Shown: positions 36,612 to 59,622 of the stretch, piece by piece
Layout: each line of letters starts with the position of its first letter
Position numbering within the stretch: position 1 is the stretch's first letter
Source: an uncultured delta proteobacterium
GTDB taxonomy: Bacteria; Myxococcota_A; Polyangia; Haliangiales; Haliangiaceae
Direction: 5' to 3'
DNA length: 64,000 nucleotides
Assembly (NCBI GenBank): GCA_963848295.1
Contig: CAWKDB010000010.1
Coordinates: forward strand, 4,160,001 to 4,224,000
Notes under the pieces: generated by a model
The model's database searches: none
Told to the model about the DNA's origin: nothing
The model's input: the letters and a program-made list of their open reading frames with translations, nothing else
Position numbers and translations under genes: made by a program

Positions 36612-37351
36612 TACTTGGCGCCGGCCCAGGCGATCGCGCCTTCGACGTCGTCGTATGCGAACGTCCTGATCTCCGCTGCGATGAAATGCTCGGCGAGTTT
36701 CGGTGCGAGGCTCGCGAGCTTGGTATCCGCCGCGAGCGCGATCCGCTTGACCTTCCGATGGTGGTCGCGCACGAACCTCAGGTGTCGAACGAGCGCGGGC
36801 AGGTTCTCCCAGCCGGGGAACGCCCGCGTGTGGATAACGAGCCCGGGTAGATCGCCGTGCGCCTCGATCCAGTGGTCCGCGGTGAAGGCCAAGGCGTCGA
36901 AGTCTTGCGCTCGCAAAGGTCGAGAGATGTCCACGACGAGCACGCCGGTCTGCGGCACGAGCCGATGCGTCACGGCCACGGTCTCCGGCAGCGACGCGAG
37001 CCATTCGATCGCACGAGTGCGCTCGGCGCTGGTGAAGGCGTTGATCGGATACGGCATGAAGAATGCGGCGAGCCGCGTGGCTTCACGCATCCACGCGACA
37101 TCTGTAACGATGGCGATGCCGTCGAACCGCCGGATCGATCCGATGCCGAGCTTCACGTCCTCCCATGCGCCACTCGGCGTTACACCGTCGAAGCTGAGCG
37201 CGATCTCGCACAGCACGCGGAGCCGCTTTCCATCGCGCCTGGCCTCGTCGAGCAGAGGCACGACGCTCCGTTCATAGTCCTGTTTCGAGATCCGGCCATC
37301 TGCACTCAGACCAGAGATCCCGGGTGGAAGATTTGCGATTCGTTCGATCAT
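36611..37351 (-). CDS. tandem SpoIIAA-like (STAS/SEC14) protein
   Basis: Two SpoIIAA-like domains, ending AIEWL and AIAWA. Confidence 0.85.
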   Translation of the reverse strand: MIERIANLPPGISGLSADGRISKQDYERSVVPLLDEARRDGKRLRVLCEIALSFDGVTPSGAWEDVKLGIGSIRRFDGIAIVTDVAWMREATRLAAFFMPYPINAFTSAERTRAIEWLASLPETVAVTHRLVPQTGVLVVDISRPLRAQDFDALAFTADHWIEAHGDLPGLVIHTRAFPGWENLPALVRHLRFVRDHHRKVKRIALAADTKLASLAPKLAEHFIAAEIRTFAYDDVEGAIAWAGAK

Positions 37352-37902
37352 CGGTGTGCTCCATGCGCGGCATCAGTGCCGCTGATCTGTGCCTGACCCT
37401 CGTGCTCGGCCAGCAGCCCTCGTGCGCATTCGACCTCGGCCGGAGGTACGCTCGCGATCAACAAGAATCGGTCCGCCCCTAGCTCCCGCTCGAGCTGGAT
37501 CACCGTGTCCTTAGGGACGCCGAGTCCGAATAGAGCTGCGGCGAACGCGCTCGTCCCGCCGAGTACGGCGGCGCCGACCGCACCACCTTCGATGGCGCCC
37601 AGCAACATCGAGCCGACGATCCCACGCGTCACGATCGGGCCGATTCCCGGAATCCAGAGCGACGCCGGTGCGAGGACAATCCCGAACAGGGCGCCCCAGA
37701 AGGCGCCGTGGCGACCCCAGTACTTGACGCGATCGGCCGCACGGTAGAAGCCGACGGCATGTCCCTCGGCGTGACGACCGCGCCCGATGATCGAGAGCTT
37801 GTTCGTGTCGAAGCTGGCATGCTCCAGTGCGCGGAGCGCGCGCTCGGCGTCTCGATGGTGACCGAACACGGCGACACAGTGGCTGTCTGTAGTCGTCTTC
37901 AT
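37348..37902 (-). CDS. general stress protein (DUF1269/YflT-like)
   Basis: KLSIIGR, GAFWG, IPGIGP and a Gly-zipper. Confidence 0.75.
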   Translation of the reverse strand: MKTTTDSHCVAVFGHHRDAERALRALEHASFDTNKLSIIGRGRHAEGHAVGFYRAADRVKYWGRHGAFWGALFGIVLAPASLWIPGIGPIVTRGIVGSMLLGAIEGGAVGAAVLGGTSAFAAALFGLGVPKDTVIQLERELGADRFLLIASVPPAEVECARGLLAEHEGQAQISGTDAAHGAHR

Positions 37903-37920
37903 GTCTACCCGTACACCACT

Positions 37921-37935
37921 GCATCAGAAGTGCCC
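37921..37935 (-). promoter_or_regulatory. sigma54 promoter of the stress protein/STAS/LOG operon
   Basis: GGGCACTTCTGATGC upstream of ATG 37902. Confidence 0.55.
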
Positions 37936-38025: not shown

Positions 38026-39678
38026 TCACTCGCGCGGCGGCTTTATGATTCGCCCGCCTCCAAACGGATGGCAGCCGGCGCAGCTCACTGCGGTCGGCTC
38101 GTGTTGCACGCGATCGCGATGGCAGGTCAAGCAGGTCGCGCGGTCGCTGCGGCCGGTCGCTGCGTGGGCCGAATGGCAAGCCGTGCAGGTTGCCTGGTGC
38201 TGTGCGACGCGATGCAAGCCCGGGAGCTGTGCTTTCGCGTGGCAGCTCTCGCACGCCGGTGGAGCGGCGGGTCCGCTCGGGCCGTGCGGGCGATGACAGC
38301 TCGCACACGCGAGCGCGACCCCGTGGCCGACCTTGATCTTTTCGGCGTGACACGTCGCGCACGCCGCCGTCGCTTGTTTAGGATCGTGCGGGTTGTGGCA
38401 ACCGTCGCAGCGTTGATGACCGGCCGGCGCGGACGCAGCCTCCGGACGATGGCAGCTCGCACACGCGGTCGTCGGCGCCTTTGGAGCGTGCGTCGCATTC
38501 GTGTGGCAGCTCGCGCACTCCGCGTGGCCGGTGCCGCTCGTCGTGTGCGCGTGATCCGCATGACAGCGCGCACACAACGCCGTGGTCGCGTTCGGCTTCG
38601 GGCCGTGCGCGGTATGGCAGAGCGCGCAAGCCGCGTGCCCGGTGTTTGCGGCCGAGTGGGAACGATCGGTATGGCACCTGCCGCATGTTGCAGCGTCGTT
38701 CGCGGGCTTTCCATCGTGCGCGACGTGACAGTCGAGACAGGGCGTATCCGCATGGTGCTCGGTCGCGTGACAGGTCGTGCAGGCGACCGCCTTCGTCCCC
38801 GACGCGACGAGCGCGCCCGAATGCACGGGGTGGCAGCCGGTACATGTTTGGCCGGCCGCGCTCGCCGGGTGAGAGACCAGCTGCTGGTGACACGTCGTGC
38901 ATGCGCGCGGCGTGTCGTCGTGCGGCGAGTGGCACATCGTGCATTGCTTGTGTGCCGCCGAGGCGAGCACGGGTTGATCGCGATGACACGTGGTGCATGC
39001 CGCGACCTCGGTCTTGCCAAACTCGTGCGGCTGGTGGCAGCCGGTGCACTGCGGGTGGCCAGCGGTCGTCGCGCGTGCGGTGATGTGAAGCGCGGCCGGC
39101 TGCGTCGCGTGACAGCTCGCGCACGCTCGATCCGCGAGGTGCTTGTCCTCGTGCACGCGGTGACAATCGAGACAGCCGTGCAGCCCGGCGTGCTGCGTCT
39201 TCTGCGCGGCATGACATGTCGTGCATGGCCTCGGATCGAGCGATGGTGTCTTGTGCGCATGGTGGCAGCTGCCACATGGTTGATCCGAGTGCGCGCCGAC
39301 CGCATGCTTGCCGTCCTGCGGTCGAGCGTGACAGCTCATGCACGGTGATCGCGGCTTGGCACCGGCTGCGGCGATGTCCGATTCGGTTCGCGGCTTGGCG
39401 CCGAACACGTGGCAGTCCCGGCAGGTCGGCACGTTGGCCACCGCCGGATGCAGCGGCGTGATCACGCCGGCGTGGCATCGCGCGCAGATTTCCGCTGGCG
39501 GCGGCGCGAACCCGGTATCGCCATGGCACGCGGCGCAAGCGACCTTGCCGACGTGAGCGATGTGGCCCGCGCTTCGAGCGACGTCGTGATACGTCGCCGG
39601 CACCTGCTCGGGGACTCGCTCGTCGGCGCCGCCACCGCAGCTGGCGATGACGACCGCGATCACGAGCGCGCGGATCAA
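38026..39678 (-). CDS. 27-heme c-type cytochrome lipoprotein
   Basis: 27 CXXCH motifs counted in 550 aa. Lipobox IASC. TTG start overlaps the upstream stop (TTGA). Confidence 0.9.
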   Translation of the reverse strand: MIRALVIAVVIASCGGGADERVPEQVPATYHDVARSAGHIAHVGKVACAACHGDTGFAPPPAEICARCHAGVITPLHPAVANVPTCRDCHVFGAKPRTESDIAAAGAKPRSPCMSCHARPQDGKHAVGAHSDQPCGSCHHAHKTPSLDPRPCTTCHAAQKTQHAGLHGCLDCHRVHEDKHLADRACASCHATQPAALHITARATTAGHPQCTGCHQPHEFGKTEVAACTTCHRDQPVLASAAHKQCTMCHSPHDDTPRACTTCHQQLVSHPASAAGQTCTGCHPVHSGALVASGTKAVACTTCHATEHHADTPCLDCHVAHDGKPANDAATCGRCHTDRSHSAANTGHAACALCHTAHGPKPNATTALCARCHADHAHTTSGTGHAECASCHTNATHAPKAPTTACASCHRPEAASAPAGHQRCDGCHNPHDPKQATAACATCHAEKIKVGHGVALACASCHRPHGPSGPAAPPACESCHAKAQLPGLHRVAQHQATCTACHSAHAATGRSDRATCLTCHRDRVQHEPTAVSCAGCHPFGGGRIIKPPRE

Positions 39679-40712
39679 GGCCGCGATCCGATCGGATGAC
39701 ACAGCCGACACGGCATCGACGAGACCGGCACGCGGCTCGACCACCCCGGCGGATGAACCGTGCCACCGACCCCGCCGACCTTGTGACAACCGACGCACAG
39801 CATCTGACCGGCGCCGTCGTGACAGCTCGCGCACGAGGTCGGATCGCGGCGAGCCTCACGCCCGTGCTCGTTATCGGCGGCGGCTGGCCCGACCCAGCCC
39901 GGCGGATGCGGGCTGATCCGGCCGTTGCCCGCGATCCCGCGCTCGAGGTGGCAGCTCGCGCAGCGATCCGGCGAATGACACGTGGTGCACGCGCCCGGCT
40001 CGGCGCGCGCTTCGAGCGCGTGGCGCGCGACAAACCCGGCGCGATGCACGCTCGGCGCGAACGGATCGGAGAAGTGCAGCGTCGCGGGCAGCGCGGCGAC
40101 GGTCTTGCCATGGCACTCCGCGCAGAACTGTTCGCGGTGGCACGACTGACAGACGTCACCCGACGATGCGGCGCGCGTCCCGTGCTCGCGGAGCCAATCG
40201 CCATCGTGTGCGAGGTGGCTCTGCGGCAGCGTCGTCGTGTCTTCGAGGTCGCGGTGGCACGCGTCGCATTTGCGTGCATCCTGGGCGGCGTCGTGGTCAT
40301 GGCACTTGAAGCACGTCGCCATCGGCGGCTGCATGTGCTGGCCACCCTCGGTGACGCCGACGTGGCACCGCACGCAATCGCCGTTGGTCGGCCCGGCGTG
40401 CTTGCGATGATCGAACACGAGATGGTCTCGCGTCTCCGCGAGCTCGGCGAGCGCGTTCGCCTCGGCATGACAGCCGAGACACGGATGCGTGTCATGCGGC
40501 TTGGCGTGGCAGGTCGTGCACGTCGCGTCATCCGGGATGTGCAGCTCGGTCCCACTTCCCGCGTTGATGCCGACATGACAGCGCGTGCACGCGACGCCCG
40601 CCAGCGCGTGCTTGAGGTGCGGGAACGGTTGCGGCCCGCTGCCGGTCAGCCCGAGCACGCCGGCGCATGCGGCGAATGCCACGCACGCGATCACCGCGAC
40701 GAGCCGCTTCAC
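39675..40712 (-). CDS. 13-heme cytochrome c (c3/c7-like repeats), probable lipoprotein
   Basis: 13 CXXCH motifs, FPHLKH/FDHRKH c7-like segments and lipobox FAAC. GTGA overlap with the porin gene. Confidence 0.9.
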   Translation of the reverse strand: MKRLVAVIACVAFAACAGVLGLTGSGPQPFPHLKHALAGVACTRCHVGINAGSGTELHIPDDATCTTCHAKPHDTHPCLGCHAEANALAELAETRDHLVFDHRKHAGPTNGDCVRCHVGVTEGGQHMQPPMATCFKCHDHDAAQDARKCDACHRDLEDTTTLPQSHLAHDGDWLREHGTRAASSGDVCQSCHREQFCAECHGKTVAALPATLHFSDPFAPSVHRAGFVARHALEARAEPGACTTCHSPDRCASCHLERGIAGNGRISPHPPGWVGPAAADNEHGREARRDPTSCASCHDGAGQMLCVGCHKVGGVGGTVHPPGWSSRVPVSSMPCRLCHPIGSRP

Positions 40713-41924
40713 GACTTCCCCCAACGCCGCCCGAGTTGTGCGAGCACGTCGAGACGTCGCAGCGATTCGGGTGACGACGACGCTTCGCCGGCGACCGCCG
40801 CGTGCCACGTGCCGTTGTCCCAACCGAGCGCGACCAGTCCCCACGGCCACACGGCGCCGAGCCCCGTGTTGTGATCCGGGATCACGAGCTCGAGCTCGGT
40901 GCTCGTGTACAGCCGGTAAGGTAGAGCGATCCGCGCGGCGCCGCGTGCGCCGGTCCACTCGTCGACGCCGACGCCGTCGCGCCGGAGCTCGCCGGACAAC
41001 GAGCTCACCCCGCGTTCGTCGAGCCGCAGCTTGGCGCGAACGACGATCTCGGGCGCCGTGTCGCCGTCGGCGTGACGCACGCCGAGGTCGCCGCTCACGT
41101 CGAGGCGCGGCGCGGCGCGCCAGGTCAGCGTCGTGCCAGCGCGCTCGGCGGGCATGTCGCCGAGCACCGAGAACAGCGAGGTCGCCGGCAAGATGTGCGA
41201 CGCGGCGACGTAGCTCGAATACACGTCCACCCGGAGCTTCTTGAAGCGGTGAGCTGGCGATCAGCGACGCCTCGGCGAGGCCGGGGTTTGCGAGGTCGTA
41301 GGCGACCTTCGCGCCGATATCATCGCGCTTGCCGAGGGACGCACCGCCGTCGACGCCGACCTCCTCGGTCGCGAGCTCGCCGTCGTCGCGTTGCTCGACG
41401 TAGGCGACGCCGATCGAGTCCCATGTCGCCGATCCGGCGCGAGACGCGGCCGCCGGCGATCCAGTCCCACGAGCGCCCGAGCGCGAGCGACGCGAACGGC
41501 GCGGTCTGCGGGCCGGCGTCTTGCGTCGTGAGGACCGGCGCGACCGGGACACCGCTGAACAGCCTCGACGTCGAGCCGATACGGCAAGCGAAGTCGGCCG
41601 GCAGCGCCATCGATCTGGACGGGCCGCAACGCGCCGAGCGATTCGACGAAGCGGCCGATGTGCGCGGAGGCACGGCCATCGGCGGTGCGCGCCCGCAGCG
41701 CGACCACGAGCACATCGGCGTGCGACTCGTCGCCGATCGTCCCACTCCCCGTCCAGACGACCGCTTCCGCCGACAAGCCCGGTCCTGCATCGCCGTCGGC
41801 GGAGACCGTGACGAGCCCCGCCGGCGCGGCCGTCGTCGCGAGCGCATCGGCGCGCAAGACGATCGGATCCGCGAGTGCGCGCGACGCTCGCGCAGATCGC
41901 GACCGCGAAGATCGGCGCCTTCAT
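40709..41924 (-). CDS. putative outer-membrane porin of a porin-cytochrome complex; four apparent +1 frameshifts
   Basis: Joined from five frame segments (junctions ~41877, ~41560, ~41424, ~41252). Removing 4 nt gives a 403-aa protein with a signal peptide and alternating beta strands. Confidence 0.7.
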
Positions 41925-42181
41925 TTCTTGCCGTACTCCCGGCGCAGCTGGCGCACGACGACGAAGAGATAGAGTCCGAACGCCGTCGTCCCGACCACTT
42001 GGCCGACGGTCATAGCGAGCATCACGGGGAGCGGCGTCGGCTGGAGCATCGACCACACCATCAGGGCGAGCCCGATCAGGGTCAGCACCGCGGCCAGACG
42101 CAACGCGAGCGTCGCGCGGCGGCTCAGACCGCCGGCGTCTGCGGGCTGCTCCGGCTCGGCAGCTGTGGTCTCGTCGGTCAT
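41921..42181 (-). CDS. small two-TM membrane protein
   Basis: 86 aa with two TMs and ATGA overlaps on both sides. Confidence 0.75.
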   Translation of the reverse strand: MTDETTAAEPEQPADAGGLSRRATLALRLAAVLTLIGLALMVWSMLQPTPLPVMLAMTVGQVVGTTAFGLYLFVVVRQLRREYGKK

Positions 42182-42817
42182 GGGATCGGTCCATTCGACT
42201 TGGAGAACGGGTGCGCCGGACCGTGGCAACCCGCGCTCGCGCAGCTCACCGAGCCATCGCGTACCCGATCGAGCAGGCTCTCGTGCTCCTTGACCTGGTT
42301 CCAGATCGGATCTGTCGGTGGAGTGGCACTGCATGCACGTCGAGTTCTGGAACGGCTCGCGGATGTGGATCTTCGCGCGCGCCTCCTCGAGCGACATGTT
42401 GCGGTAGTGCAGCGTGTACTCGTAGACGTGGCGCAGCCCGCCCATCTTCGTGACGATCGTGCCGAACATCCCGTAGTTCGCGTGGCACGCGTAGCAGTTC
42501 TCGTCGCCGAACATCGGATTGCGCGCGTGACGCGCCGCCAGTGTCGTGCTGTTCGGATCTTCGGAGTCGGTGCGGTACGGCGTCATCACATGGCACGACC
42601 CGCAGAACGACCGCTGCTTCGTCGCTTCGAAGCCTGCGACGTTGCCGGTCGTCGCGGTCGCGATCGGCAAGACGCCGATCCCGAGGAGCAGCACCAGCTT
42701 CGTGGCGTGTGACAGGGCGGGCCGGCGCACGAGGTACCACAGCACCAGCAGCGCGGACCCCGTCGCGCACATGAGCGCCATCGAGAGGAACGGATGACTA
42801 AAGATCCACGACGCCAT
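42178..42817 (-). CDS. napC: NapC/NirT/CymA-family tetraheme quinol dehydrogenase; one apparent +1 frameshift (~42312)
   Basis: N-terminal TMs, FCGSCHVM, CYACH and CMQCH. After the shift it reads DPIWNQVKEH...CASAGCHGPAHPF. Confidence 0.85.
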
Positions 42818-43985
42818 TGATGTGCTCGCTCGTGCCGTTGGTGACGATGATGTTGCCGAACGCATCGACCGTGCCGGAATGGCAGGCCGCGCAGCTCGTC
42901 AACGTCATCGTCGGTGTGTGCGGTGCGTCGCTCGGCGGAATTCCGTGGCAGCTGCCGCAGGTGACCTCACCCGTCGATGTCCAGACCGGCAGCGAGGGCC
43001 CATGGCAATACGAGCTCGCGCAGGTCTGCGCGTCGCGATCCCAGGCGAGGCTCGCGTTCACGATCGCGGGGCCCGCGTGATCGATGTGACCCGGCGAGTC
43101 GATCGTGGTCGGCACGACGTGGCACGTCGCGCACGGGATCGGCGCGGAGATGTGCGACGACGCCTGGAGGTGCGCTTGATGCGCGCCCACGCCGATCGCG
43201 GTCGTGAACGTGTTGCCCGAGAGGTCGACCGGCGGCGCGGGCGACGCGGCGCTGCCGTGACACCCGCTGCACCCGGGCTCGCGCCCGACCTGGACGATGC
43301 CGTCGATGTGCGGCGCCGACGGCGGATGGCACGTCGCGCAATCGTTGCGCGCGTGGCTCGGCGGTGGATTGCCGTGACAGCGGTCGCAACCGCCCGTCGG
43401 CGTCGGGTCGTTCCAGCGTATCGCGGTCGCCGTGCCGCCACCGTTGCCGAGCACGGCGCCGTGACAGTAGACGTTCGTGCAGGTCGCGCCGTCCCACGTC
43501 GGAGGGGCGGCGCGATTCGCCGGATCGCCGAGAGAGGCGCGCGCGCCGAACGTCACCGCCGCCGGCGCCGTGATCGCGACGCCGTTGTGGAGGATGTGGC
43601 CGTCTTGGTCCCAGCTCGTCGGCACGACGTGACACTCGGCGCAGCTCACCGTGGTCAGCGTCGTGTTCGCGTGGTCGGGGTGCGCGTTGCTGGTCGGCCC
43701 GTTGCCGTGACACGTCACGCATGCGGTCGGTCCCGCGGCATGGCAGCTCAAGCACGACACGCCCGACGTGCCGCCGCTGAAATCGGAGCCGTGGCAGCTC
43801 GCGCACAACGCGAAGTTCCAGTTCTGGCTTTCGAGCAGCGCACCGTGAAAGCTCGGGCTGGTCGGATCGAGAATCCCGGGCGGGTGAATGGTCGCGCCGC
43901 AATCGGTCGTGCATGCGCCACCGAGCGTGCGCGGATCGTCGCAGCCCGCACCGCACAGCACGAGCACGATGGCCACCCGCCACAT
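42798..43985 (-). CDS. multiheme cytochrome c lipoprotein with Geobacter-type CX4CH...CXXCH domains (12 motifs)
   Basis: Lipobox GAGC, 10 CXXCH motifs, plus CTNVYCH and CASSYCH. Confidence 0.9.
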   Translation of the reverse strand: MWRVAIVLVLCGAGCDDPRTLGGACTTDCGATIHPPGILDPTSPSFHGALLESQNWNFALCASCHGSDFSGGTSGVSCLSCHAAGPTACVTCHGNGPTSNAHPDHANTTLTTVSCAECHVVPTSWDQDGHILHNGVAITAPAAVTFGARASLGDPANRAAPPTWDGATCTNVYCHGAVLGNGGGTATAIRWNDPTPTGGCDRCHGNPPPSHARNDCATCHPPSAPHIDGIVQVGREPGCSGCHGSAASPAPPVDLSGNTFTTAIGVGAHQAHLQASSHISAPIPCATCHVVPTTIDSPGHIDHAGPAIVNASLAWDRDAQTCASSYCHGPSLPVWTSTGEVTCGSCHGIPPSDAPHTPTMTLTSCAACHSGTVDAFGNIIVTNGTSEHINGVVDL

Positions 43986-43989
43986 CACG

Positions 43990-46203
43990 TCACGGCGTGC
44001 CGTGGAAGAGCGAGACGTCCTCGACCATCCCGGGGCCGTGGCACGTCGCGCACGCCTCGACACCGCCGACGGTCGTGTTGAGCTGCGCGTGGGCCAGCGT
44101 ATAAGGCGCGTCGTGACAGCTCGTGCATGCGGAGGTCTGCGGCTGGAGCTGTATCGTCGACGTCACCGTCCAGAACGGGCTGTCGCAGTAGCTCGCGGTG
44201 CTGACGACGGTCTCCGAGCAGCCCATCAGCGACACCGTGCTCGGGGCGTACGCGGGCGACGCGGTCAGCGGCAGCGTCCAGTTCTTGCTCGTGTGGCACG
44301 CACCGCAACTCGTGAGCGGCGCCGGATAGCGATCGGCACCGAAGTTGTTTTGGGTCCCGCCCGGGTTCGCCACGGAGGGCAGCGGAAAGCCGCCGATCAG
44401 GTAGGGCTCGCTGAGCTGATCGCCGGCGTGGACCTTGTGAATGAAGTGACGGAAGTCGATCGTGTCGGCGAGCACGTTGCTCGAGCCCTGGAAGCGCGGC
44501 GCGCCGGCGGTGTCCGATGCCGCGGGGTTATGACAGAACACGCAGTACTGTGGGTTCGTACGAGCGCCGCCATGTGCGGCGAGGCCGTGGTGACAGCTGT
44601 TGCAGTTATCGAGCGCCACGATCGTTCGCCGTGGCTGCGGCGTGGCGTCGGTGACCGCGAACGTGAGCACCGGGTTCACCGTCGCGTAGCGCGGATCGCT
44701 CGACGTTGGCTGCAGGTAGCCTTCGAGTCCGACCGAGTAGCTGCCGGTCGCCGTCGGCGGGATCGCGGCGCTCGCCGGGAAGACGTAGCGATACGTCCCG
44801 GTCCCGGCGTCGACCAGGCTCAACGCGCCGACCGCACCGCTGCCCTGTACCTTGGCCTGCCATTCGGTCGCGTAGTCGGTGGTCGGGCCCGCGATCGTCG
44901 CGGTGATCGCGGTGAGCGGCGACCCGATCAGATTCGCCGGCGCGCCGTCGACCATCGCCGTGAACGTCAGCGTCGGCGTCTGGCCAGGCCCGGTGTTCGT
45001 CATCGACTGGATCGCGAGCGCGACGGTGGTCGCCGTCGGTGACAACAGGCCAACGAAGTGGAAGTCGGCGATGCCGGCGATGCTGCCGCTCGCGGGATGG
45101 CATACCGCACACGGCGCGTCGTCGGGCTGTACGCCGCCGCCGTGGAGGACCATTCCAGTCGGGACCGGCAGGCTGAACGAGATGTTGTCGTGACACGACG
45201 TGCACGCAGTCTTCGCGGGCGAGGTCTCCCAGCGATCGCCATCGGTGCCGGCGTGGCACGCGGTGCAGCGCTGTGTGCCCGACGCGGCGATCCCCGATGG
45301 ACCGGCGGTCGGGATCGGCACCGCCTCGGGGAACACCACGGTCGAGAAGTCGTTGACCGATCCCATGTATCCGACGATCTGGTACGGGGTTCCGGAGGCC
45401 ACGCTCGGCAGGCCAGCGCCGTCGTGGATCTTGTGAATCATCACCTTGAAGTCGAGCGTGTTGCCGGTGCTCGGATCGCTCGACTGCGGCTGATGACAAA
45501 GGATGCACTGCGCCGTCGAGGTCCACCGGCCGCCGTGCATCGACAGGTCTTTGTGGCAGCTGTTGCACGTCGTGTCGGTGACCTCCTGCCTGGAGATCGG
45601 AGTCCCGCCGTCGGGGCGCGCAGAGAACGTGGCGTTGCCGATCGACTCGGATGCGCCGATCGTGCGCACGGCGAGCGCGCCGACCGTCTGCGTGAGCGAC
45701 GACATGATGCCGGTCGTAGGGGCGGCGAACGCATACGTGTACTCGCCCTTTGCAAGGTCGACGACATCGAGCGTGCCACTCGATTCGGCCTGCGCCTGCG
45801 TCGCCATCGCGCCCGAGCCGCTCGTCGCTTGCTGCGTCGTGTACGCGGTGTACTGTGCAGCTGAACCATCGGTGTTCTTCGCGAGCTGCGCGAGCACGAA
45901 GCTGGTCGCGACCTTGCCGTCGGTCAGCCGGCCGCTGATATCGAGCGGTGCACCGGTGCCATCCGTGACGGTAAAGCTGACCGTCGCCGAGTCGCTGCCG
46001 AACGCGAGACCGGTGACTTCGATCGACACCGCGGACTGCGTCAGCCACGGTCCGATGCCGGCCTCGCCGGGCGGTCCGGCATCGCCGGTCGGGCCGGTTG
46101 GCCCGGTTGGCCCGGCATCTCCAGTGGCACCGGCCGGACCTTGGGGACCGGCCGGGCCGTCGCACGCAGTGACGAACAACAACGACATGAGGATCCAGCG
46201 CAT
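43990..46203 (-). CDS. mtrC: OmcA/MtrC-family decaheme outer-surface lipoprotein
   Basis: Lipobox VTAC and 10 CXXCH in two groups of five, each after a beta domain. HGG-R and DFK.MIHKIH / DFRHFIHKVH motifs. Confidence 0.92.
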   Translation of the reverse strand: MRWILMSLLFVTACDGPAGPQGPAGATGDAGPTGPTGPTGDAGPPGEAGIGPWLTQSAVSIEVTGLAFGSDSATVSFTVTDGTGAPLDISGRLTDGKVATSFVLAQLAKNTDGSAAQYTAYTTQQATSGSGAMATQAQAESSGTLDVVDLAKGEYTYAFAAPTTGIMSSLTQTVGALAVRTIGASESIGNATFSARPDGGTPISRQEVTDTTCNSCHKDLSMHGGRWTSTAQCILCHQPQSSDPSTGNTLDFKVMIHKIHDGAGLPSVASGTPYQIVGYMGSVNDFSTVVFPEAVPIPTAGPSGIAASGTQRCTACHAGTDGDRWETSPAKTACTSCHDNISFSLPVPTGMVLHGGGVQPDDAPCAVCHPASGSIAGIADFHFVGLLSPTATTVALAIQSMTNTGPGQTPTLTFTAMVDGAPANLIGSPLTAITATIAGPTTDYATEWQAKVQGSGAVGALSLVDAGTGTYRYVFPASAAIPPTATGSYSVGLEGYLQPTSSDPRYATVNPVLTFAVTDATPQPRRTIVALDNCNSCHHGLAAHGGARTNPQYCVFCHNPAASDTAGAPRFQGSSNVLADTIDFRHFIHKVHAGDQLSEPYLIGGFPLPSVANPGGTQNNFGADRYPAPLTSCGACHTSKNWTLPLTASPAYAPSTVSLMGCSETVVSTASYCDSPFWTVTSTIQLQPQTSACTSCHDAPYTLAHAQLNTTVGGVEACATCHGPGMVEDVSLFHGTP

Positions 46204-46218: not shown

Positions 46219-46233
46219 TCACGTCGCGTGCCA
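46219..46233 (-). promoter_or_regulatory. possible sigma54 promoter of the cytochrome operon
   Basis: TGGCACGCGACGTGA. The -24 box is perfect, but the -12 box has GA instead of GC. Confidence 0.4.
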
Positions 46234-46442: not shown

Positions 46443-47024
46443 TCAATAGAGCGGCCACTCGTCGGGGCGGAGCGTCGCGCAGTGCTGATCGTAGGTGTAC
46501 CGGTGCGGCGGGACGTAGTGATGCGTCGCCTCGACGGTCTTCATGTCCAGGAGCTCGACGTAGTCGTAGGTCTTGGGCCGCGCGACCTCGACCGTACAAC
46601 CGGCCTCGCGCACGACGCGCTCGGACACCGAGCCGAGCACGAACCGTTCGACCCCGACGAGGCCCTTGCTTCCCACGATGATCAGATCCGCGCCGACTTC
46701 ACGGGCGAGCATCAGGATCTCGTCGGCGGGATGGCCGATGCGCGCGTGGACGAAGAAGTGAACGCGATCGGTGATCGCCGCCGCGCCGAGCTCCTCGGCG
46801 ATCGACTGGGTCATCGCCTGCTGCACGCGCTCGGTGTAATCGTAATCGACGTGCCCGTGCCGAGGCAGTGGTGCGACAGAGCCATGCGGCTCGACCACGC
46901 AGACGAAGTGCAGCGTGTGAAACGGTGCGCGCTTCGCGAGCGCGATGGCGCGGTACATCGCGTCGCGGCTGCTCTTGCTGAAGTCATAACCAACGACGAC
47001 CTGGGTATGGTTGGTGTTGCTCAT
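46443..47024 (-). CDS. universal stress protein
   Basis: VVGYDFS, ADLIIVGSKG and LGSVSERVVR motifs. Confidence 0.92.
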   Translation of the reverse strand: MSNTNHTQVVVGYDFSKSSRDAMYRAIALAKRAPFHTLHFVCVVEPHGSVAPLPRHGHVDYDYTERVQQAMTQSIAEELGAAAITDRVHFFVHARIGHPADEILMLAREVGADLIIVGSKGLVGVERFVLGSVSERVVREAGCTVEVARPKTYDYVELLDMKTVEATHHYVPPHRYTYDQHCATLRPDEWPLY

Positions 47025-47038
47025 GCTCGGCCTTGAAG

Positions 47039-47053
47039 GCAACTGACGTGCCA
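47039..47053 (-). promoter_or_regulatory. sigma54 -24/-12 promoter of the USP gene
   Basis: TGGCACGTCAGTTGC, a perfect TGGCAC-N5-TTGC match. Confidence 0.8.
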
Positions 47054-47055
47054 GG

Positions 47056-47469
47056 TCACGCACGCGCGTGTTTGACGCCGATGTCGATGCCCGAGAGCGC
47101 GCGGTACGCAATATCGACGAAGTCGGTGCTCGTGATAATGCCGATCGGATGTTCGGCGTCGTCGACGACAGGGACTGCGCTGTACTTGCCGCGGATCAAG
47201 CGCTCGGCGGCGTACGCGGCCGGTGTGCCTGGCCCGACGGTGATCACGCTGCGCGACATGACCGACCCTATGGTCGCAGCTCGATCCGCCGTGCGCAGCA
47301 GGTCGCGATCGGAGACCACCCCGACCAGCTTCCCCGAGATATCGACGACGAGCAGGTGCCGGATCTCGTCGTGCGCCATCTCGTTCGCTGCAAGCGCGAC
47401 GTCGTCGTCGTCCTCGAAAATCGTTCGCAGGTTGACCTTCATGATGTCGGCACACGAGAGGTTCGGCAT
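47056..47469 (-). CDS. CBS domain protein
   Basis: IRHLLVVD..LVGVVSDRD and VPVVD..IGIITSTD motifs. Confidence 0.88.
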   Translation of the reverse strand: MPNLSCADIMKVNLRTIFEDDDDVALAANEMAHDEIRHLLVVDISGKLVGVVSDRDLLRTADRAATIGSVMSRSVITVGPGTPAAYAAERLIRGKYSAVPVVDDAEHPIGIITSTDFVDIAYRALSGIDIGVKHARA

Positions 47470-47589
47470 GGTTGCGATCACTTCACGTGTCGTGCCGGGC
47501 CTCGCGCTGCTTTTCCGGCAAGCGATGCGGAACGGACAGGCGGCGCCGCCGACTTTGCGCGAATCCAAGATCGATCGGCCGAGTTGCCG

Positions 47590-47604
47590 TGGCGCGCGGC
47601 TTGC
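47590..47604 (+). promoter_or_regulatory. sigma54 promoter of the CBS gene
   Basis: TGGCGCGCGGCTTGC (GG-N10-GC). Confidence 0.6.
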
Positions 47605-47627
47605 TGCTCCTCGGGTGGGAGGTACCT

Positions 47628-48167
47628 ATGCCGGCGACCAATACATCCACGCAGCACGTGTATCGGGGCCACGGCGACCACTCCGTGCGCGAGCCGGTCT
47701 GCGACGACGCCCGGTCGAGCGACACGCGCGTCCCGACGATCGCGGACTCCGTTCCGGTGAGCCGTATCATGAGCCGCGACGTCGTATGTGCGCGTGACAA
47801 CCTCGACACCGCCGTGTTGATCGACTTGATGGTGCGCAAGCGAGTCGGTTGTGTCCCGGTCGTCGATCATGACGGCTGTCCGATCGGCATGGTCACCAAA
47901 CAGGATCTGGTCGAGCTCCTGCTTGGCGGGCGTGGACCGGACGCCGCACCAGGTCTTACCACCGGGCAGATCATGATGCCGCTCGCTTTCACCCTCGACG
48001 AGCACGCCACGATCGACCACGTGGCCGCGATGATGAGCATCGAGGACGTCCATCATGTGCCGATCGTCGCCGAGAGCGGCTGCCTGATCGGCATCGTGTC
48101 CTCGCTCGACATCGTGCGCTGGCTTGCGACCAACGACGGCTTGGTCGACGCTTCATCGCGGGGATGA
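47628..48167 (+). CDS. CBS domain protein
   Basis: RBS GGAGG, VPVVD..IGMVTKQD and VPIV..IGIVSSLD motifs. Confidence 0.88.
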   Translation: MPATNTSTQHVYRGHGDHSVREPVCDDARSSDTRVPTIADSVPVSRIMSRDVVCARDNLDTAVLIDLMVRKRVGCVPVVDHDGCPIGMVTKQDLVELLLGGRGPDAAPGLTTGQIMMPLAFTLDEHATIDHVAAMMSIEDVHHVPIVAESGCLIGIVSSLDIVRWLATNDGLVDASSRG

Positions 48168-48329
48168 GGCGCGATCCGACGGGGCCCGCCGCGCGCGACC
48201 AGCGACCGATAACGCGGAGTAATCGCAGGCTCGGGCTTGCGTTCCGTAGGGTCGTCGTCGAAGCTTACGGCGGGAAAATTTGGGTCGAGCAGGCCGACCC
48301 GGGTCCCGCATTCGTGATCAGGATCTACA

Positions 48330-50267
48330 ATGCTCGTTGACTGGAACGTCCCATTCCGAGCGTTGATCGACGCCGCGCCGGACGGCCTCGTCGTAGTCGA
48401 CACGCACGGCACGATCGCGCTCGTCAACGCCGAGGCCGAGCGGATGTTCGGATATTCCCACGATCACCTGCTGAACCAGCCGATCGACATGCTCGTCCCC
48501 GATTCGGTCCGCCCGCGGCACGCGGGTCACCTGGCCGGCTACGTGTCCGCACCCAAGCTCCGCCCGATGGGCTCGAACCTCGATCTGCGCGGCCGGCGCA
48601 AAGACGGCACGGAGTTCCCGGTCGAGATCAGCTTGGCGCCGATCACGACCGATCGCGGCACGCTGATCATCGCCGGGATCCGCGATGTCACCGATCGGCG
48701 CCAGCTCGAGCGACAGCATCGCCGCGCGAGCGCGTACCTGGTCTCCGCGGTCGACGCCGTGCAGGACGCCTTCACGTTGTTCGACGAGCAGGATCGCGTG
48801 ATGATGGTGAACAGCGCCGCGCGCCAACTATTGGGGGGCCCGAGCGGCGAGGCGATCGTCGGCCGTCGCTTCGACGAGCTCCTCCGCGACGCGCTCGCGA
48901 GCGGCGTGTTCGATTTCAGCGACGAGACGCGCGAGTCACTGCAGCGGCGCTGGCTCGACTACCATCGAGCGCCGTCGGGCACGCTCGAGGTTCGCACGGG
49001 AACCGGCCGTTATCTGCGCGTGACCGAGCGCAAGACCGCCGATCACGGCACGGTCTCGACGATCGCGGATGTGACCGACGATGTCGCGCGCGCCGAGGAG
49101 CTGGGGCGTGCACGCGAGATCGCCGAAGCGGCGAGCGCGGCCAAGAGCGAGTTCCTGTCCTCGATGAGCCACGAGCTGCGGACGCCACTCAACGCGGTCC
49201 TGGGGTTCGCCCAGCTGCTCGAGCGCGACCGCAAGCAGCCGCTCAGCGATCGCCAGCTCGAACGGCTCGGTCACGTGATGCGCGGCGGCGAGCACCTCCT
49301 GCGGCTGATCGACGACGTCTTGGACCTCTCGCGGATCGAAGCCGGCCGTGTCGCGATCTCGTCCGAGCCCGTCGAGGTCGGCGAGGTGCTCGGGGAAGTC
49401 GTTCATACACTCGAGCCGATGGCGCACCGTGCGCAGATCGGGCTCGCGGTGCAGCCGACACCGGTGGTGTTGCCCTGTGTCCTCGCCGATCGCACGCGGC
49501 TGTCGCAGATCCTCATGAACTTCGGCTCGAACGCGATCAAGTACGGCAAGCCCAACGGCCACGTCACATTTCGCACCGCCACGATCGGCGATGCGGTGCG
49601 CATCACCGTGGAAGACGACGGCATCGGGATTCCTGACGACAAGCGCGACAAGATCTTCGAGCCGTTTCAGCGCGCGGGCCAGGAAGCGGGGCCGATCGAG
49701 GGGACGGGCATCGGCCTCACGATCAGCAAGCGGCTCGCCGAGATGATGCGGGCGAGCGTCGGGTTCTCCAGCGACGTTGGTCGCGGCTCCGAGTTCTGGA
49801 TCGATCTCGCGATTCACCGCGCGCAGAGCGGCGAGACCCCCACCGCAGTCGCGTCGCCATGGACCGGTTCGCGTCTCGCGGCGGCACCGGGCCGACACCT
49901 GGTGGTTTACGTCGAAGACAACCCATCGAACATCGCGTTCATGCGCCATCTCGTCGAAGAGCTCGCCACGGTGGAGCTCATGACCGCGCCTACCGCGGAG
50001 ATCGGCATCGAGCTGATCCGCGCGCACCGTCCGAAGGTCGTCATCATGGACATCAACCTCCCGGGCATGAGCGGCCTCGAAGCGGTCAAGCGTCTGCGCG
50101 AACTGCCCGAGACGCGCGAAATCCCAGTGATCGGTCTGTCGGCCGCGGCCCTGGTCAAGGATACGTCCCGCGCGAAGGACGCTGGGTTCTATCGTTACCT
50201 CACCAAGCCGGTGAAGGTCGCCGAGCTCACGCAAGCGCTCGAAGAGCTGCTCGTCGGTCCGGTCTAG
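48330..50267 (+). CDS. PAS-PAS hybrid histidine kinase/response regulator
   Basis: PAS GRRKDGTEFPVEISL, H-box MSHELRTPLN, N/G boxes and receiver YVEDN...MDINLP...KP. Confidence 0.93.
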   Translation: MLVDWNVPFRALIDAAPDGLVVVDTHGTIALVNAEAERMFGYSHDHLLNQPIDMLVPDSVRPRHAGHLAGYVSAPKLRPMGSNLDLRGRRKDGTEFPVEISLAPITTDRGTLIIAGIRDVTDRRQLERQHRRASAYLVSAVDAVQDAFTLFDEQDRVMMVNSAARQLLGGPSGEAIVGRRFDELLRDALASGVFDFSDETRESLQRRWLDYHRAPSGTLEVRTGTGRYLRVTERKTADHGTVSTIADVTDDVARAEELGRAREIAEAASAAKSEFLSSMSHELRTPLNAVLGFAQLLERDRKQPLSDRQLERLGHVMRGGEHLLRLIDDVLDLSRIEAGRVAISSEPVEVGEVLGEVVHTLEPMAHRAQIGLAVQPTPVVLPCVLADRTRLSQILMNFGSNAIKYGKPNGHVTFRTATIGDAVRITVEDDGIGIPDDKRDKIFEPFQRAGQEAGPIEGTGIGLTISKRLAEMMRASVGFSSDVGRGSEFWIDLAIHRAQSGETPTAVASPWTGSRLAAAPGRHLVVYVEDNPSNIAFMRHLVEELATVELMTAPTAEIGIELIRAHRPKVVIMDINLPGMSGLEAVKRLRELPETREIPVIGLSAAALVKDTSRAKDAGFYRYLTKPVKVAELTQALEELLVGPV

Positions 50268-50369
50268 CCGCCGGAACTACGGGCGCGGTGGACCGCACCG
50301 CAACATCTGCGCGATCGCTGCCCCGTTCGCAGCAGTTTGCTGGCCTGGTTCGTGAAACAGCACCTGGCC

Positions 50370-50813
50370 ATGGTTCCGAAGACGATCCTGGTCCCCACCG
50401 ACTTCAGCGCGAACGCCGAAGAGGCGCTCGATTACGCCGTGGCGCTTGCCGGCAAGCTCGATGCGCGAGTCTACGTGCTCAATGTAATCGCGATGCAGAT
50501 GTTCGGTGCCGAGTACGGCGTCGCGGTCACCCAGGCGATGGTCGAAGACGTCACGCGGGGCAACCAAGCGGCCCTCGACAAGCTGATCGCCGCACGCACC
50601 GGGAGATCCGCGTTTGGTCCCGCTCAGCTGGAGTACGGCGATGCTCGCGCGGTGATCGAGGCGGTCGCTCGGAAGCTCGGCGCGGACTTGATCGTGATGG
50701 GCACGCACGGGCGGCGCGGGCTCAAGCGCCTGCTGCTCGGCAGTGTCGCCGAGTCTGTCATTCGCACCGCGCCGTGTCCTGTCTTGTTGGTCCGTGCGAC
50801 CGAGGTCAGTTGA
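50370..50813 (+). CDS. universal stress protein
   Basis: ILVPTDFS, DLIVMGTHGR and LGSVAESVIR.APCPVL motifs. Confidence 0.93.
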   Translation: MVPKTILVPTDFSANAEEALDYAVALAGKLDARVYVLNVIAMQMFGAEYGVAVTQAMVEDVTRGNQAALDKLIAARTGRSAFGPAQLEYGDARAVIEAVARKLGADLIVMGTHGRRGLKRLLLGSVAESVIRTAPCPVLLVRATEVS

Positions 50814-50967
50814 CGAAAGCGGAGCGACGGATGTTGCAACTGCAGAGCGACAACTGCGCGGATCTCGCACGGCGCGAATGCCGCGACGCAGAACCAGCAG
50901 ATCCTGCGGGCGCTGGCCCTGGGCCGCAAATCTTGCGCGGATCTTTCCGGAACTAGCTAACCAAGCG

Positions 50968-50982
50968 TGGCACGCTCCTCGC
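50968..50982 (+). promoter_or_regulatory. sigma54 promoter of the NtrC-like/globin kinase operon
   Basis: TGGCACGCTCCTCGC (GG-N10-GC). Confidence 0.6.
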
Positions 50983-51005
50983 TACATTGGCCGCGAGAGG
51001 TCAGC

Positions 51006-52398
<1,393 letters not shown>

Positions 52399-52415
<17 letters not shown>

Positions 52416-53589
52416 CTCGGTCCTCGCCGAGATTTTGACTTCGGTAGCGCTCGACGAGGCCGATCGCGCGCGGCTCGTCGCTCTGCGCGCGCGGTTAGCG
52501 TCGCAGTTTCCGGAGATCGCCGATCGATTCTACGACAGGGTGCGCGCGAACCCCGCGACCGCTCAGCTGATATCCGACCCCGAGCAAGTCGCGAGGCTAC
52601 ACGCGACGCTCATCGAGTGGATGTCGAGCGGCTTGCTCGGCCCCTACGACGAGGCGTTCTCCGCCAAGCGCTCGCGGATCGGCCGGCGCCACGTCGAGAT
52701 CGGCTTGCCGCAGCACTACATGTTCACCGCGATGAGCACGATCCGCGGCGAGTACGACGATCGGATCTCCGCACTCTACGATCCCGCGGAGGCGAGGTTG
52801 GTGTCGAAGTCGGTCGACAAGTTGCTCGACGTCGAGCTCGCGTTGATGCTGCGCCACTACCAGCTCGACTCCGAGGCCAAGCTCGTCGAGAGCGAGCGAC
52901 GCGTGCACTCCGACCGCGTGATCGCGATCCAGACGCTATCCGCCGGACTCGCGCACGAGGTCCGCAACCCGCTGAACTCGGCCAAGCTCCAGCTCGAGTT
53001 GCTCGAGCGGCGCCTCAAGCGTGAGGGCGGCGACCCCAAGCTCGTCGATCCCGTCGACCTCGCTAACGAAGAGATCGAGCGGCTCACTCGGCTGCTCAAC
53101 GAGTTCCTCGCGTTCGCGCGTCCGCCGGATCTCGCGCTCGGCGATCACGATGTCGTCGCGATCGCGCGCAACGTCGTGACGAGCGACCGGATGCTATGCA
53201 CGCAGCGCGGAGCGGCCCTGGAGCTCGAGCCCCACGAACCGCTGGTCGCGCGCATCGACGCGACGAAGCTCGAGCAGATCGTCCACAACCTCGTCCGCAA
53301 CTCGATCGAGGCTGTGTCCGCGGGTGGGCACGTCAGGGTCGCCGTTCGCGGCGACGATTCGCACGTTAACGTGTGCGTCGAAGACGACGGTCCCGGCATC
53401 CCGGCCGCGATTCAAGCGCGGATCTACGAGCCGTTCTTCACGACCAAGGACAGCGGCACCGGCCTCGGCATGTCGATCGTCCACAGCATGGTCACCCTGC
53501 ACGGCGGCACCATCGCGATCGAATCGAGCTCGAACGGCACGCGGTTCGACGTCGCGATCCCGCGTCAGCCCCCAGGCCGCAGCCGCTGA
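52399..53589 (+). CDS. globin-coupled histidine kinase
   Basis: Sensor globin (FYD with B10 Tyr; IGRRHVEIGL with F8 His), AHEVRNPL and a HATPase domain. Confidence 0.9.
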
Positions 53590-53820
53590 CCAGCGACGAT
53601 CGAGCTCACCCCTCTCTCCAGGTCGGCGATCGACGGCGCCGTGAACAACGCGTCGAGCTCGTCGAGCGACGGTCGCGATATCGGTGCGCCACGGTGAGGT
53701 GATCTCCAGGGTTCTCCGCCCATGGCCGAGCTCTATACAGGTTGCACGTGGGCATCGAACCCACCGCAAGTCCTCCGGCCCGGGTCCGTCAGGTTGACAA
53801 AGCTCTTCGCAGGCCGTCGC

Positions 53821-54777
53821 TTACGCTCGTCGCCGACGTTGCAAAGTTCGAAGGCTGACGCCCAAACGTTTCGCTGCGTGGGTGAGATTTCCATGCTCCG
53901 CGGCGACGACTCGGTCGATCACGCGGTCCACGATCTCGCCGAGTGAACGAGTGAGGTCAACCTCGAACGCACTCCCGGATGGTTCCATTCTAGCGGCGCC
54001 TTCGAATCCGGGGGGCAGGTCCTTGATGTGGACGGTTCGGCCGGAGCGCAAGATCGTCACGAATTCGATCACGTTTCGCAGCTGTCGAACGTTGCCAGGC
54101 CACTCGTGCGCGACGAAGGCTGCCCGGGTGTTGCGCGTCAGCTTTGGTGGCTCGCAGCCGTGGATCGCCGACAGCTGGGCGACGAACGCGTCGATCAGCG
54201 CGGGGATATCGCGCCGCCGCTCGCGCAGCGGCGGGACGTTCAACGTGATGCCCTCGATCCGATAGTACAGGTCGGCACGAAACCGGCCTGCACGAACTTC
54301 CTCGCCAAGCGGCCTGAGCGTGGCGAGCACGACGCGCGCGTTGACTTCGAGCTTCTTCGTGCCCCCGACGCGCATGAAGCGGTGGGTCTCGAGGAACCGC
54401 AACAGCTTCGGCTGGAGCGCCAGCGGCATCTCCGCGACCTCGTCGAGGAACAGCGTGCCCCCGCTCGCCATCTCGACTTTACCGAGTCCGCGGTCGGTCG
54501 CGCCGGTGAACGCTCCGCGCTCGTGACCGAAGAGCTCGCTCTCGAACAGCGCCTCCGGGATCGCCGCGCAATTGATCGGCACGAATGGCCCGGTGCGACA
54601 GGCGGACAGATCGTGGAGGCGACGCGCCATCACTTCCTTGCCGGCCCCGCTCTCTCCTACGAAGGTGACCGTGACGTTCTTACTCGCGACCGCTCGTAGG
54701 ATGCGATCGAACGTCCGCATGACCGGCGAAGCCATCATCGGCTCGAGCACGACGACCGGAGAAGCCTTGCGGGTCAT
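53821..54777 (-). CDS. sigma54 enhancer-binding protein lacking a sensory domain
   Basis: [27 protein letters not shown] and an HTH, with only a short N-terminal extension. Confidence 0.9.
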
Positions 54778-54847
54778 TGCAGCTCGCGACACTACGACAC
54801 TTTGCCACGGCGCGCCCGATGCGCGAAAGCGGCGCAGTCGAAGCCGA

Positions 54848-55213
54848 TCACGCGCGATGCGGCTCGTTCGCGCGCAGGGCGTCCACCAAGTCCCAACCGA
54901 ATGACGGCGCTGGGAGCACACGAAGCCGCTCGCCGTAGCTCGCGACCAGCTCGGTCAGGGCCGTTGGCTTGGACGTCACGATGACGACCCGCTTGGTCTT
55001 GCCGAGCTTCATCCAGAAACGAACGCTCGCCACCAGCTCGCTGCTAGACGCAACCTGGGGGCTGATCACGACCAACGCCGCGAACGCGCTCGATACCTCG
55101 AGCTCCTCGCATTCGTGAACCTCGAAGCCTGCGCTCCGCAGATAACTCGCGAGCGCGCCCCGCGTCTCGCCAGCGGGCGCGATCAGAGCGACGGGTTGTT
55201 TGGTCGCTATCAA
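54848..55213 (-). CDS. degenerate receiver-like protein
   Basis: CheY-like beta/alpha pattern ([18 protein letters not shown]) with no acidic pocket. TTGA overlap with the upstream gene. Confidence 0.55.
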
Positions 55214-56004: not shown

Positions 56005-56013
56005 TCCATCACC

Positions 56014-58973: not shown

Positions 58974-58977
58974 GCGA

Positions 58978-59619: not shown

Positions 59620-59622
59620 AGG

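Follow-up and report, generated by a model that had tools for sequence, protein, structure and literature searches.

An operon from a myxobacterial genome predicted to encode a porin-cytochrome conduit with an MtrC-family decaheme cytochrome

The window analyzed here is a stretch of 64,000 nucleotides (nt) from the genome of an uncultured delta proteobacterium (assembly GCA_963848295.1, contig CAWKDB010000010.1, positions 4,160,001 to 4,224,000 of the forward strand). Between window positions 38026 and 46203, seven coupled minus-strand genes encode five multiheme cytochromes, a porin and a small two-helix (2-TM) membrane protein. Judged from its sequence and from structural models, this operon probably encodes a porin-cytochrome conduit that would pass electrons drawn from menaquinol on to acceptors outside the cell, such as Fe(III)/Mn(IV) oxides or humic quinones. 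The operon is apparently undescribed, and it is predicted to work like the porin-cytochrome conduits (Pcc) and MtrCAB without being an MtrCAB itself.

Operon organization and heme inventory

The initial annotation of the window described seven tightly coupled genes with 66 heme motifs, and six-frame translation together with motif counts bore this out. The genes and the promoter-like motif in front of them are as follows (aa, amino acids).

43990..46203, minus strand: MtrC/OmcA-family decaheme lipoprotein (TIGR03507), 737 aa; a collagen-like linker follows the lipobox
42798..43985, minus strand: 12-heme CX4CH/CX2CH lipoprotein cytochrome, 395 aa (TIGR01904, PF09698)
42178..42817, minus strand: NapC/NirT-family tetraheme quinol dehydrogenase, with an extra base at 42312 in the assembly (PF03264)
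41921..42181, minus strand: two-helix membrane protein (2-TM), 86 aa, no family, directly behind the NapC gene
40709..41924, minus strand: outer-membrane beta-barrel (porin), ~390-410 aa, 22 predicted strands, no plug (model of an orthologue)
39675..40712, minus strand: 13-heme lipoprotein, 345 aa, with an N-terminal 6-heme c7-type tandem and a C-terminal 7-heme module
38026..39678, minus strand: 27-heme repeat lipoprotein cytochrome, 550 aa (c3/c7-type Pfam matches)
46219..46233, minus strand: promoter-like motif of the sigma54 type (-24/-12), 30 nt ahead of the start codon of the first gene

Neighboring genes are separated by a 4-nt gap once, overlap by 20 nt once, and share 4-nt start/stop overlaps at four junctions. 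The cytochromes carry 10, 12, 4, 13, and 27 heme motifs in gene order (66 in total, the porin and 2-TM protein not counted). No other listed open reading frame (ORF) of the window has more than one CX2CH motif and the operon is conserved, so chance is ruled out as the source of this cluster. No genomic island was seen in the GC profile. Four lipoboxes had been annotated: those of the MtrC-family, 13-heme, and 27-heme proteins are clear, whereas that of the CX4CH protein (GAGC) failed the strict pattern; its relatives have LAGC or LAAC, and the lipobox cysteines of all four soluble cytochromes are kept in relatives.

The porin and 13-heme cytochrome as the predicted conduit core

Structure prediction with AlphaFold2 was carried out on the intact porin of a related locus (L007), not on the window copy. 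The model has 22 strands and no plug, with a mean predicted local distance difference test score (pLDDT) of 74.9, and its best fold matches are mostly 22-strand TonB-type barrels (Z 18.3, root-mean-square deviation 5.4, 335 residues aligned), in agreement with the annotation of this protein as a porin. MtrB was considered and rejected as a specific fold relative, as it ranked 28th (Z 14.6) and generic barrels ranked higher. By sequence, a porin profile gave only a chance match in the PDB, no consistent Pfam or NCBIfam match was found among 93 family members, and the MtrB model TIGR03509 recognized 0/93 at an E-value of 0.05. The family is large, with 803 clusters at 90% identity among 8000 scored and 1702 clusters at 50%; Myxococcota is the phylum in which its nearest atlas clusters occur most often, and no match was found in plasmids.

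The 13-heme protein has two parts. A profile comparison matched the GSU1996-like structure 3OV0 over positions 6-143. Modelled alone, the protein has a weak C-terminal half (pLDDT 68) and matched just ActA-like chains (Z ~5). A complex model that pairs the porin of L007 with the 13-heme protein of the same locus scored 0.81, the best of three controls reaching 0.00. This covers two of the three proteins (porin and 13-heme, with the decaheme as the third) for which the initial annotation had proposed multimer modelling as a check. This mark is reached by 116/157 solved complexes and 2/215 mismatched pairs, a calibration that is only roughly applicable here, as our own alignments were used. The runs share at least 79% of contacts, with a partner pLDDT of at least 74. 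The interface comprises cytochrome residues 154-322, which hold the last seven hemes, plus residues 3-5, and on the porin side residues around nearly the whole barrel.

Natural variants have the same boundary. A 7-heme protein lies behind the porin in 6/9 loci of family f26 and 3/3 of f42, and these proteins cover just positions ~148-327 of the 13-heme profile. Because the modelled interface and the 7-heme-only homologues coincide, porin plus seven hemes is likely the minimal conduit, and the c7 tandem would be an extension of it. Porin and 7-heme pairs with no other heme gene within ~8 kb were seen at L065-L067, L069, L070, L073, and L092-L094.

The MtrC-like, CX4CH and 27-heme cytochromes

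The first gene is assigned to the MtrC/OmcA type, as annotated, by a full-length match to TIGR03507 (377 bits, curated cut-off 209). Its ten CX2CH motifs are divided 5+5 between two pentaheme domains, its closest PDB sequences are MtrF, OmcA, UndA, and MtrC, and the cysteine of its lipobox (VTAC, residues 11-14) is kept in 12/15 aligned sequences. Shewanella MtrC has a CX8C disulfide in domain III. Unlike Shewanella MtrC, gene 1 and its relatives (15 aligned) have no conserved cysteine between hemes 5 and 6, where that motif would lie, but an extra cysteine pair in domain IV (662/673) is present in 15/15. Three other loci (L004, L010, L029) have another MtrC-like decaheme, divergent at 24-27% identity, next to the usual one or in its place.

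The second gene has 10 CX2CH and 2 CX4CH motifs. It exceeds the cut-off of TIGR01904 in two stretches (65.9 bits, cut-off 27) and that of PF09698, which confirms the annotated Geobacter-type CX4CH cytochrome; no PDB relative was found by sequence. That family is shared with Geobacter; in the present case its gene belongs to a porin operon of Myxococcota. The 27-heme protein has 27 CX2CH motifs at ~20 aa per heme and c3/c7-type Pfam matches, and the corresponding repeat cytochromes of other loci vary from 23 to 34 hemes.

The NapC-like protein and its 2-TM neighbor

Gene 3 matches PF03264 at 37.9 bits (cut-off 24.1) and has four hemes, a CXXCHXM motif, and a conserved lysine, in keeping with its annotation as a NapC/NirT-family tetraheme. 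It falls under the NCBIfam cut-offs for NrfH (34 vs. 134 bits) and NapC/NirT (26 vs. 311 bits), scores that were taken on the 166-aa in-frame piece only. CXXCHXM, Lys119, and His125 are invariant in 25/25 orthologues. The protein shares the CXXCHXM first heme and the lysine with NrfH (2J7A), and differs from it in that His125 stands in place of an aspartate, the fourth motif is CX4CH, the N terminus has two hydrophobic segments (by inspection), and a dedicated 2-TM neighbor is present.

The 2-TM gene lies behind NapC in 25/27 NapC-bearing loci. Its product had no family match in the Pfam or NCBIfam scans, has invariant L, W, Q, and G residues, and is likely a partner of the NapC-like protein. 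In other families of the class (L042-L044, L048, L049) the NapC and 2-TM pair is inverted and kept together, either apart from the porin gene or head-to-head with it. Natural NapC-2TM fusions were sought among five longer matches, one of which is the window's own broken ORF. One of the other four is a NapC fusion in which heme motif 4 is cut short at its end; the rest are not NapC fusions, so this line was rejected.

Conservation and variants

All seven genes recur in window order in 15 fetched loci from related genomes (L006, L007, L009-L015, L024, L026-L028, L050, L051), which answers the synteny question raised with the initial annotation. The operon-type set comprises 48 fetched loci that were picked by one gene (the 13-heme cytochrome), some of them cut by contig ends and their members being kin rather than independent samples. 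Excluded from the locus counts were L025 (a duplicate of L006), L093-L094 (below the cytochrome threshold), and L052-L064 and L078-L081 (other loci of the host genome). The porin is next to the 13-heme gene in 47/48, the single miss being at a contig end. The accessory genes are less constant: CX4CH 41, 27-heme 33, NapC 27, 2-TM 25, and MtrC 22 of 48. Because MtrC, NapC, and the 27-heme protein vary among loci, a fixed seven-part wire is not required. Of the "complete quinol-to-surface wire" first proposed, the constant porin and 13-heme pair thus stands, but the whole wire would be an assembly of this pair with variable accessories.

Within the genus, strong 13-heme orthologues (E <1e-120) occur in 15/24 genomes and a NapC orthologue in 47/76; these counts take in two genomes that are unpublished, G466 with a match and G010 with no strong one, on which none of the other results depends. 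Across the phylum, porin profile matches were found in 105/401 genomes, the host's included, and 13-heme profile matches in 182/401. Of the other 26 loci, outside the operon-type set, 25 hold a distant two-gene form with no accessory genes, and the porin adjoins the cytochrome in 23 of the 26. This distant form occurs widely across the phylum, for the most part without an obvious lipobox. The host genome itself has such a porin and 13-heme pair (L077, G000:C2:271.5-274.4 kb), which is also frameshifted.

Reading-frame breaks in the assembly

Neither NapC nor the porin has an intact ORF in this assembly, a point that the initial annotation left unstated for both genes. Three CX2CH motifs of NapC are in frame; past the break at 42312 the ORF reads falsely into the 2-TM gene, and the fourth heme motif (CX4CH) sits in another frame. 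The porin frame changes about four times (~41895, ~41560, ~41420, and 41254). Five frame changes within ~1.1 kb, confined to two genes, would be expected if the operon were decaying in this genome, with real frameshifts and a conduit that no longer works here. Several observations make decay very improbable. Contigs from a public run (X1) do not have the extra base at 42312 or at 41254, two of the five break sites; of 27 contigs compared, 13 were at least 99% identical, each corrected site was covered by one contig at a depth of ~3, and the run may be the source sample of the assembly itself. In the same assembly, 3/4 heme-copper oxidase subunit I genes are likewise split across frames. The other five operon genes are free of in-frame stops, and each NapC or porin piece is 65-80% identical to intact orthologues. 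All related loci checked (9/9) have an intact porin of 385-415 aa and separate NapC and 2-TM genes. The breaks are read as assembly errors.

The host genome

The host genome is 7.8 Mb and 85% complete. When named genomes were searched with the 13-heme protein, 13 loci were found at 53-77% identity, with titles naming Kofleriaceae (8), Deltaproteobacteria (2), Myxococcales (1), Proteobacteria (1), and Acidobacteriota (1). The suspected myxobacterial origin is thus upheld, as the named relatives point to Kofleriaceae (Myxococcota). The genome provides for cytochrome c maturation, the presence of which had also been put forward as a check, through CcmF/CcmC-type genes (three cytochrome c assembly matches) and CcmE. 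MenD is present and no futalosine genes were found in the genome. Two genes for GspD, the secretin of the type II secretion system (T2SS), are above cut-off. There are four COX1-family (heme-copper oxidase subunit I) genes, two of which we take, from their motifs, to be CcoN-like and qNor-like.

The usual periplasmic partner for this NapC was not found in the 85%-complete genome: NapA had no match above cut-off, and the NrfA family had weak partial matches at most. A search for MtrB elsewhere in the genome gave no match, though the search control also gave no signal. Several further multiheme loci are present. The large ones include L079 (G000:C10:439905-447645), L078, L080, and L081, with 28-heme and 23+8-motif proteins flanking a weak porin-like match.

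Probable promoter and gene neighborhood

The operon is probably transcribed from a sigma54 promoter. In most of the operons compared, the first gene is preceded at 28-30 nt by a sigma54-type motif, and GGCAC occupies the motif position at 11/16 operon starts (GGCAY at 15/16), against a background of 4.3%. This motif is also found ahead of the neighboring Usp and CBS genes and of the CcoN-like gene. No sigma70 promoters or terminators were found. Genome-wide, the motif precedes many genes, mostly at 28-30 nt from the start codon, a spacing that implies transcripts with almost no leader for a wide range of genes for secreted proteins and lipoproteins. The motif by itself was rejected as evidence of low-oxygen control, as it precedes many unrelated genes.

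Directly upstream (46446-54921) are two Usp genes, two CBS-pair genes, a PAS-PAS hybrid kinase, two sigma54 activators, and a protoglobin histidine kinase (52372-53589). This cluster is a candidate for the oxygen-sensing regulators of the operon. Low-oxygen control is only suggested, by the sharing of the motif with the CcoN-like, Usp, and CBS genes, by the protoglobin kinase, and by the sigma54 activators. Farther upstream (55210-62552) is a membrane complex of the complex I/group 4 hydrogenase type, with Oxidored_q6, a 49-kDa subunit, and two antiporter subunits. Downstream of the operon, a GG-N10-GC motif (37920-37934) precedes a gene at 37348-37902, which is followed by a SpoIIAA-like gene and a LOG-family gene. 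A transposase-like ORF (16110-17507, minus strand) lies in a stretch of lower GC.

Proposed mechanism and alternatives

According to the proposed mechanism, the NapC-type tetraheme, a quinol dehydrogenase by family, would oxidize menaquinol, probably together with the 2-TM protein. A long lipoprotein cytochrome, either the 27-heme or the CX4CH 12-heme protein, could then bridge the periplasm. The C-terminal seven hemes of the 13-heme protein are predicted to thread the 22-strand barrel in place of MtrA, with the 6-heme c7 tandem outside the barrel and probably periplasmic. The MtrC-family decaheme, likely exported by the T2SS, would be the surface reductase.

Several points weigh against this outward conduit. 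The complex model was built on a relative's proteins, and since a similar complex, MtrAB (6R2Q), has already been solved, the score may reflect likeness rather than binding by this copy. The four soluble cytochromes are all lipoproteins, whose sidedness is not readable from sequence. MtrC, NapC, and the 27-heme gene are present in only 22, 27, and 33 of the 48 loci, some losses being due to contig ends. The sigma54 motif is broad in the genome, 89/206 matches lying close to a likely start, and it precedes many unrelated genes. X1 contigs do not cover three of the five frameshifts, and in one X1 contig the MtrC gene has an inserted base (44632) for which there is no explanation. Finally, the same parts are described as serving Fe(II) oxidation in other bacteria (PMC6295460).

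The last point leads to a conduit that runs inward, in which electrons from Fe(II), reduced humics, or other cells would reach NapC, which would reduce menaquinone and thereby feed a cbb3-type oxidase or NO reductase. The CcoN-like and qNor-like genes, typed from their motifs, would provide such endpoints, and the CcoN-like gene shares the promoter motif. Menaquinone, on the other hand, is a low-potential acceptor. CymA-type proteins occur in Fe(II) oxidizers and are credited with intrinsic quinone reductase activity (PMC6295460), yet MtrC heads the present operon, whereas known Fe(II)-oxidizing conduits are reported, in the accessible text of two accounts, to be without a surface MtrC-type decaheme (10.1101/2022.03.26.485925; PMC4245776). 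We consider inward flow unlikely.

Alternatively, the proteins could serve mainly as an electron capacitor, or to connect cells within swarms and biofilms, storing electrons through short anoxia and discharging them to O2 or to neighbors while supporting no growth on minerals. Such a role would suit the 66 hemes, the variable 23-34-heme repeat proteins, and the further multiheme loci of the same genome, and the accessory-free two-gene form that is widespread in the phylum suggests a general role. Storage alone needs neither a barrel-threading module nor an MtrC-family protein, and this proposal overlaps with the export of electrons to minerals or humics, differing chiefly in the final acceptor. 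It appears quite unlikely as a separate explanation.

Comparison with known systems

Like the Pcc systems, which have porins of 18-22 strands and cytochromes of 5-14 hemes, the operon places a predicted 22-strand porin beside a 13-heme cytochrome, and lipoprotein cytochrome genes, whose products have a putative surface location, are in the cluster. The closest known system is the Anaeromyxobacter Pcc, consisting of two genes for a porin and a 12-heme cytochrome of ~340 aa (Shi, 2014; PMC4245776), which on published description may be homologous to the core described here. In group IV of that genus (Adeh_3391/Adeh_3392) the cytochrome has 338-344 aa and 12 hemes, compared with 345 aa and 13 hemes here, within the same phylum. 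The operon differs in adding MtrC, NapC, 2-TM, CX4CH, and 27-heme genes to the pair, and in that its 13-heme cytochrome is a lipoprotein. No family model or PDB chain matched the porin, and the Pcc were compared by published description.

The operon resembles MtrCAB with CymA in that a single cluster encodes both an MtrC/OmcA-family decaheme lipoprotein and a tetraheme of the NapC/NirT family, and in that a cytochrome is predicted to lie inside a barrel. Unlike MtrCAB, the operon has no recognizable MtrA, as the initial annotation had noted (TIGR03508, 15.8 bits for the 13-heme and 27.2 bits for the 27-heme protein, cut-off 192), and no MtrB match. The porin is indeed much shorter than MtrB, with 22 strands and ~390 aa compared with 26 strands and ~650 aa, but this is not new in kind, as short Pcc porins are published. 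The operon was also thought to be a hybrid of the Shewanella and Geobacter toolkits. Parts of both families are mixed in it, but such mixing has precedents: in most groups other than Shewanella, mtrCAB clusters contain CymA homologues (Baker, 2022; PMC8805035), the same is described for Rhodoferax and Ferrimonas (PMC6295460), and one Desulfuromonas is reported to co-express Mtr and Pcc, with Mtr, Omc, and Pcc occurring together (Shaw, 2025; PMC12133095). The Baker survey required mtrC, A, and B together, and Myxococcota are absent from its main text as accessible (PMC8805035).

Related systems have been glimpsed in this phylum and elsewhere. In boreal lakes, metagenome-assembled genomes of Myxococcota are reported to exceed those of other groups in novel multiheme clusters and to contain MtrC and ExtABC matches, and extracellular respiration in the phylum is shown for Anaeromyxobacteraceae (10.1101/2022.03.26.485925). 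Comparable divergent conduits are reported for peat Acidobacteriota and Verrucomicrobiota (10.64898/2026.05.27.727921), and rice-soil Myxococcota express omcS (10.64898/2026.08.10.744021). An MHCscan table lists adjacent Labilithrix luteola cytochromes of 349 aa/13 hemes, 584/26, 514/11, and 438/6; the pattern resembles rearranged variants elsewhere in the class, though this is a table row that lists no porin or NapC, and the accessible text of that paper does not refer to it. The same accessible table has no MtrC row for three Anaeromyxobacter strains (Garber, 2024; PMC11475568). Haliangium-type myxobacteria are reported to be active predators in activated sludge, in an account whose accessible text does not contain the word cytochrome (PMC11821767).

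No description of this operon, and no identical system already characterized, was found in the literature, in which subscription papers were thinly covered; the supplements of three preprints may list such loci. The conduit principle, toolkit mixing, CymA beside Mtr genes, short Pcc porins, and the two-gene Anaeromyxobacter Pcc are already known. New here are a porin family and a 7-heme module, an MtrC that occurs without MtrAB, a likely partner protein for NapC, and the spread of the operon among Kofleriaceae. Whether these amount to a conduit family of the Myxococcota's own, built on the 22-strand porin and the 7-heme module and wired in Kofleriaceae to an MtrC-family reductase and a two-subunit NapC, we regard as evenly balanced.

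Implications

If this proposal is right, MtrC would work without MtrAB. The natural 7-heme and 13-heme versions offer a minimal two-gene conduit of ~0.65-0.75 thousand residues, which makes the docking of MtrC on a non-MtrAB conduit directly testable. As the porin has no Pfam or NCBIfam model, annotation pipelines label it hypothetical. For the organisms, abundant soil and wastewater myxobacteria beyond Anaeromyxobacter would be able to respire minerals, humics, or other cells once oxygen is gone; electron export to minerals or humics is a capacity not established for these oxidase-equipped Kofleriaceae. With the marker in ~60% of one large Kofleriaceae genus and the porin in about one quarter of sampled Myxococcota genomes, such a spread would mean that a common group takes part in the redox cycling of iron and humics in soil.

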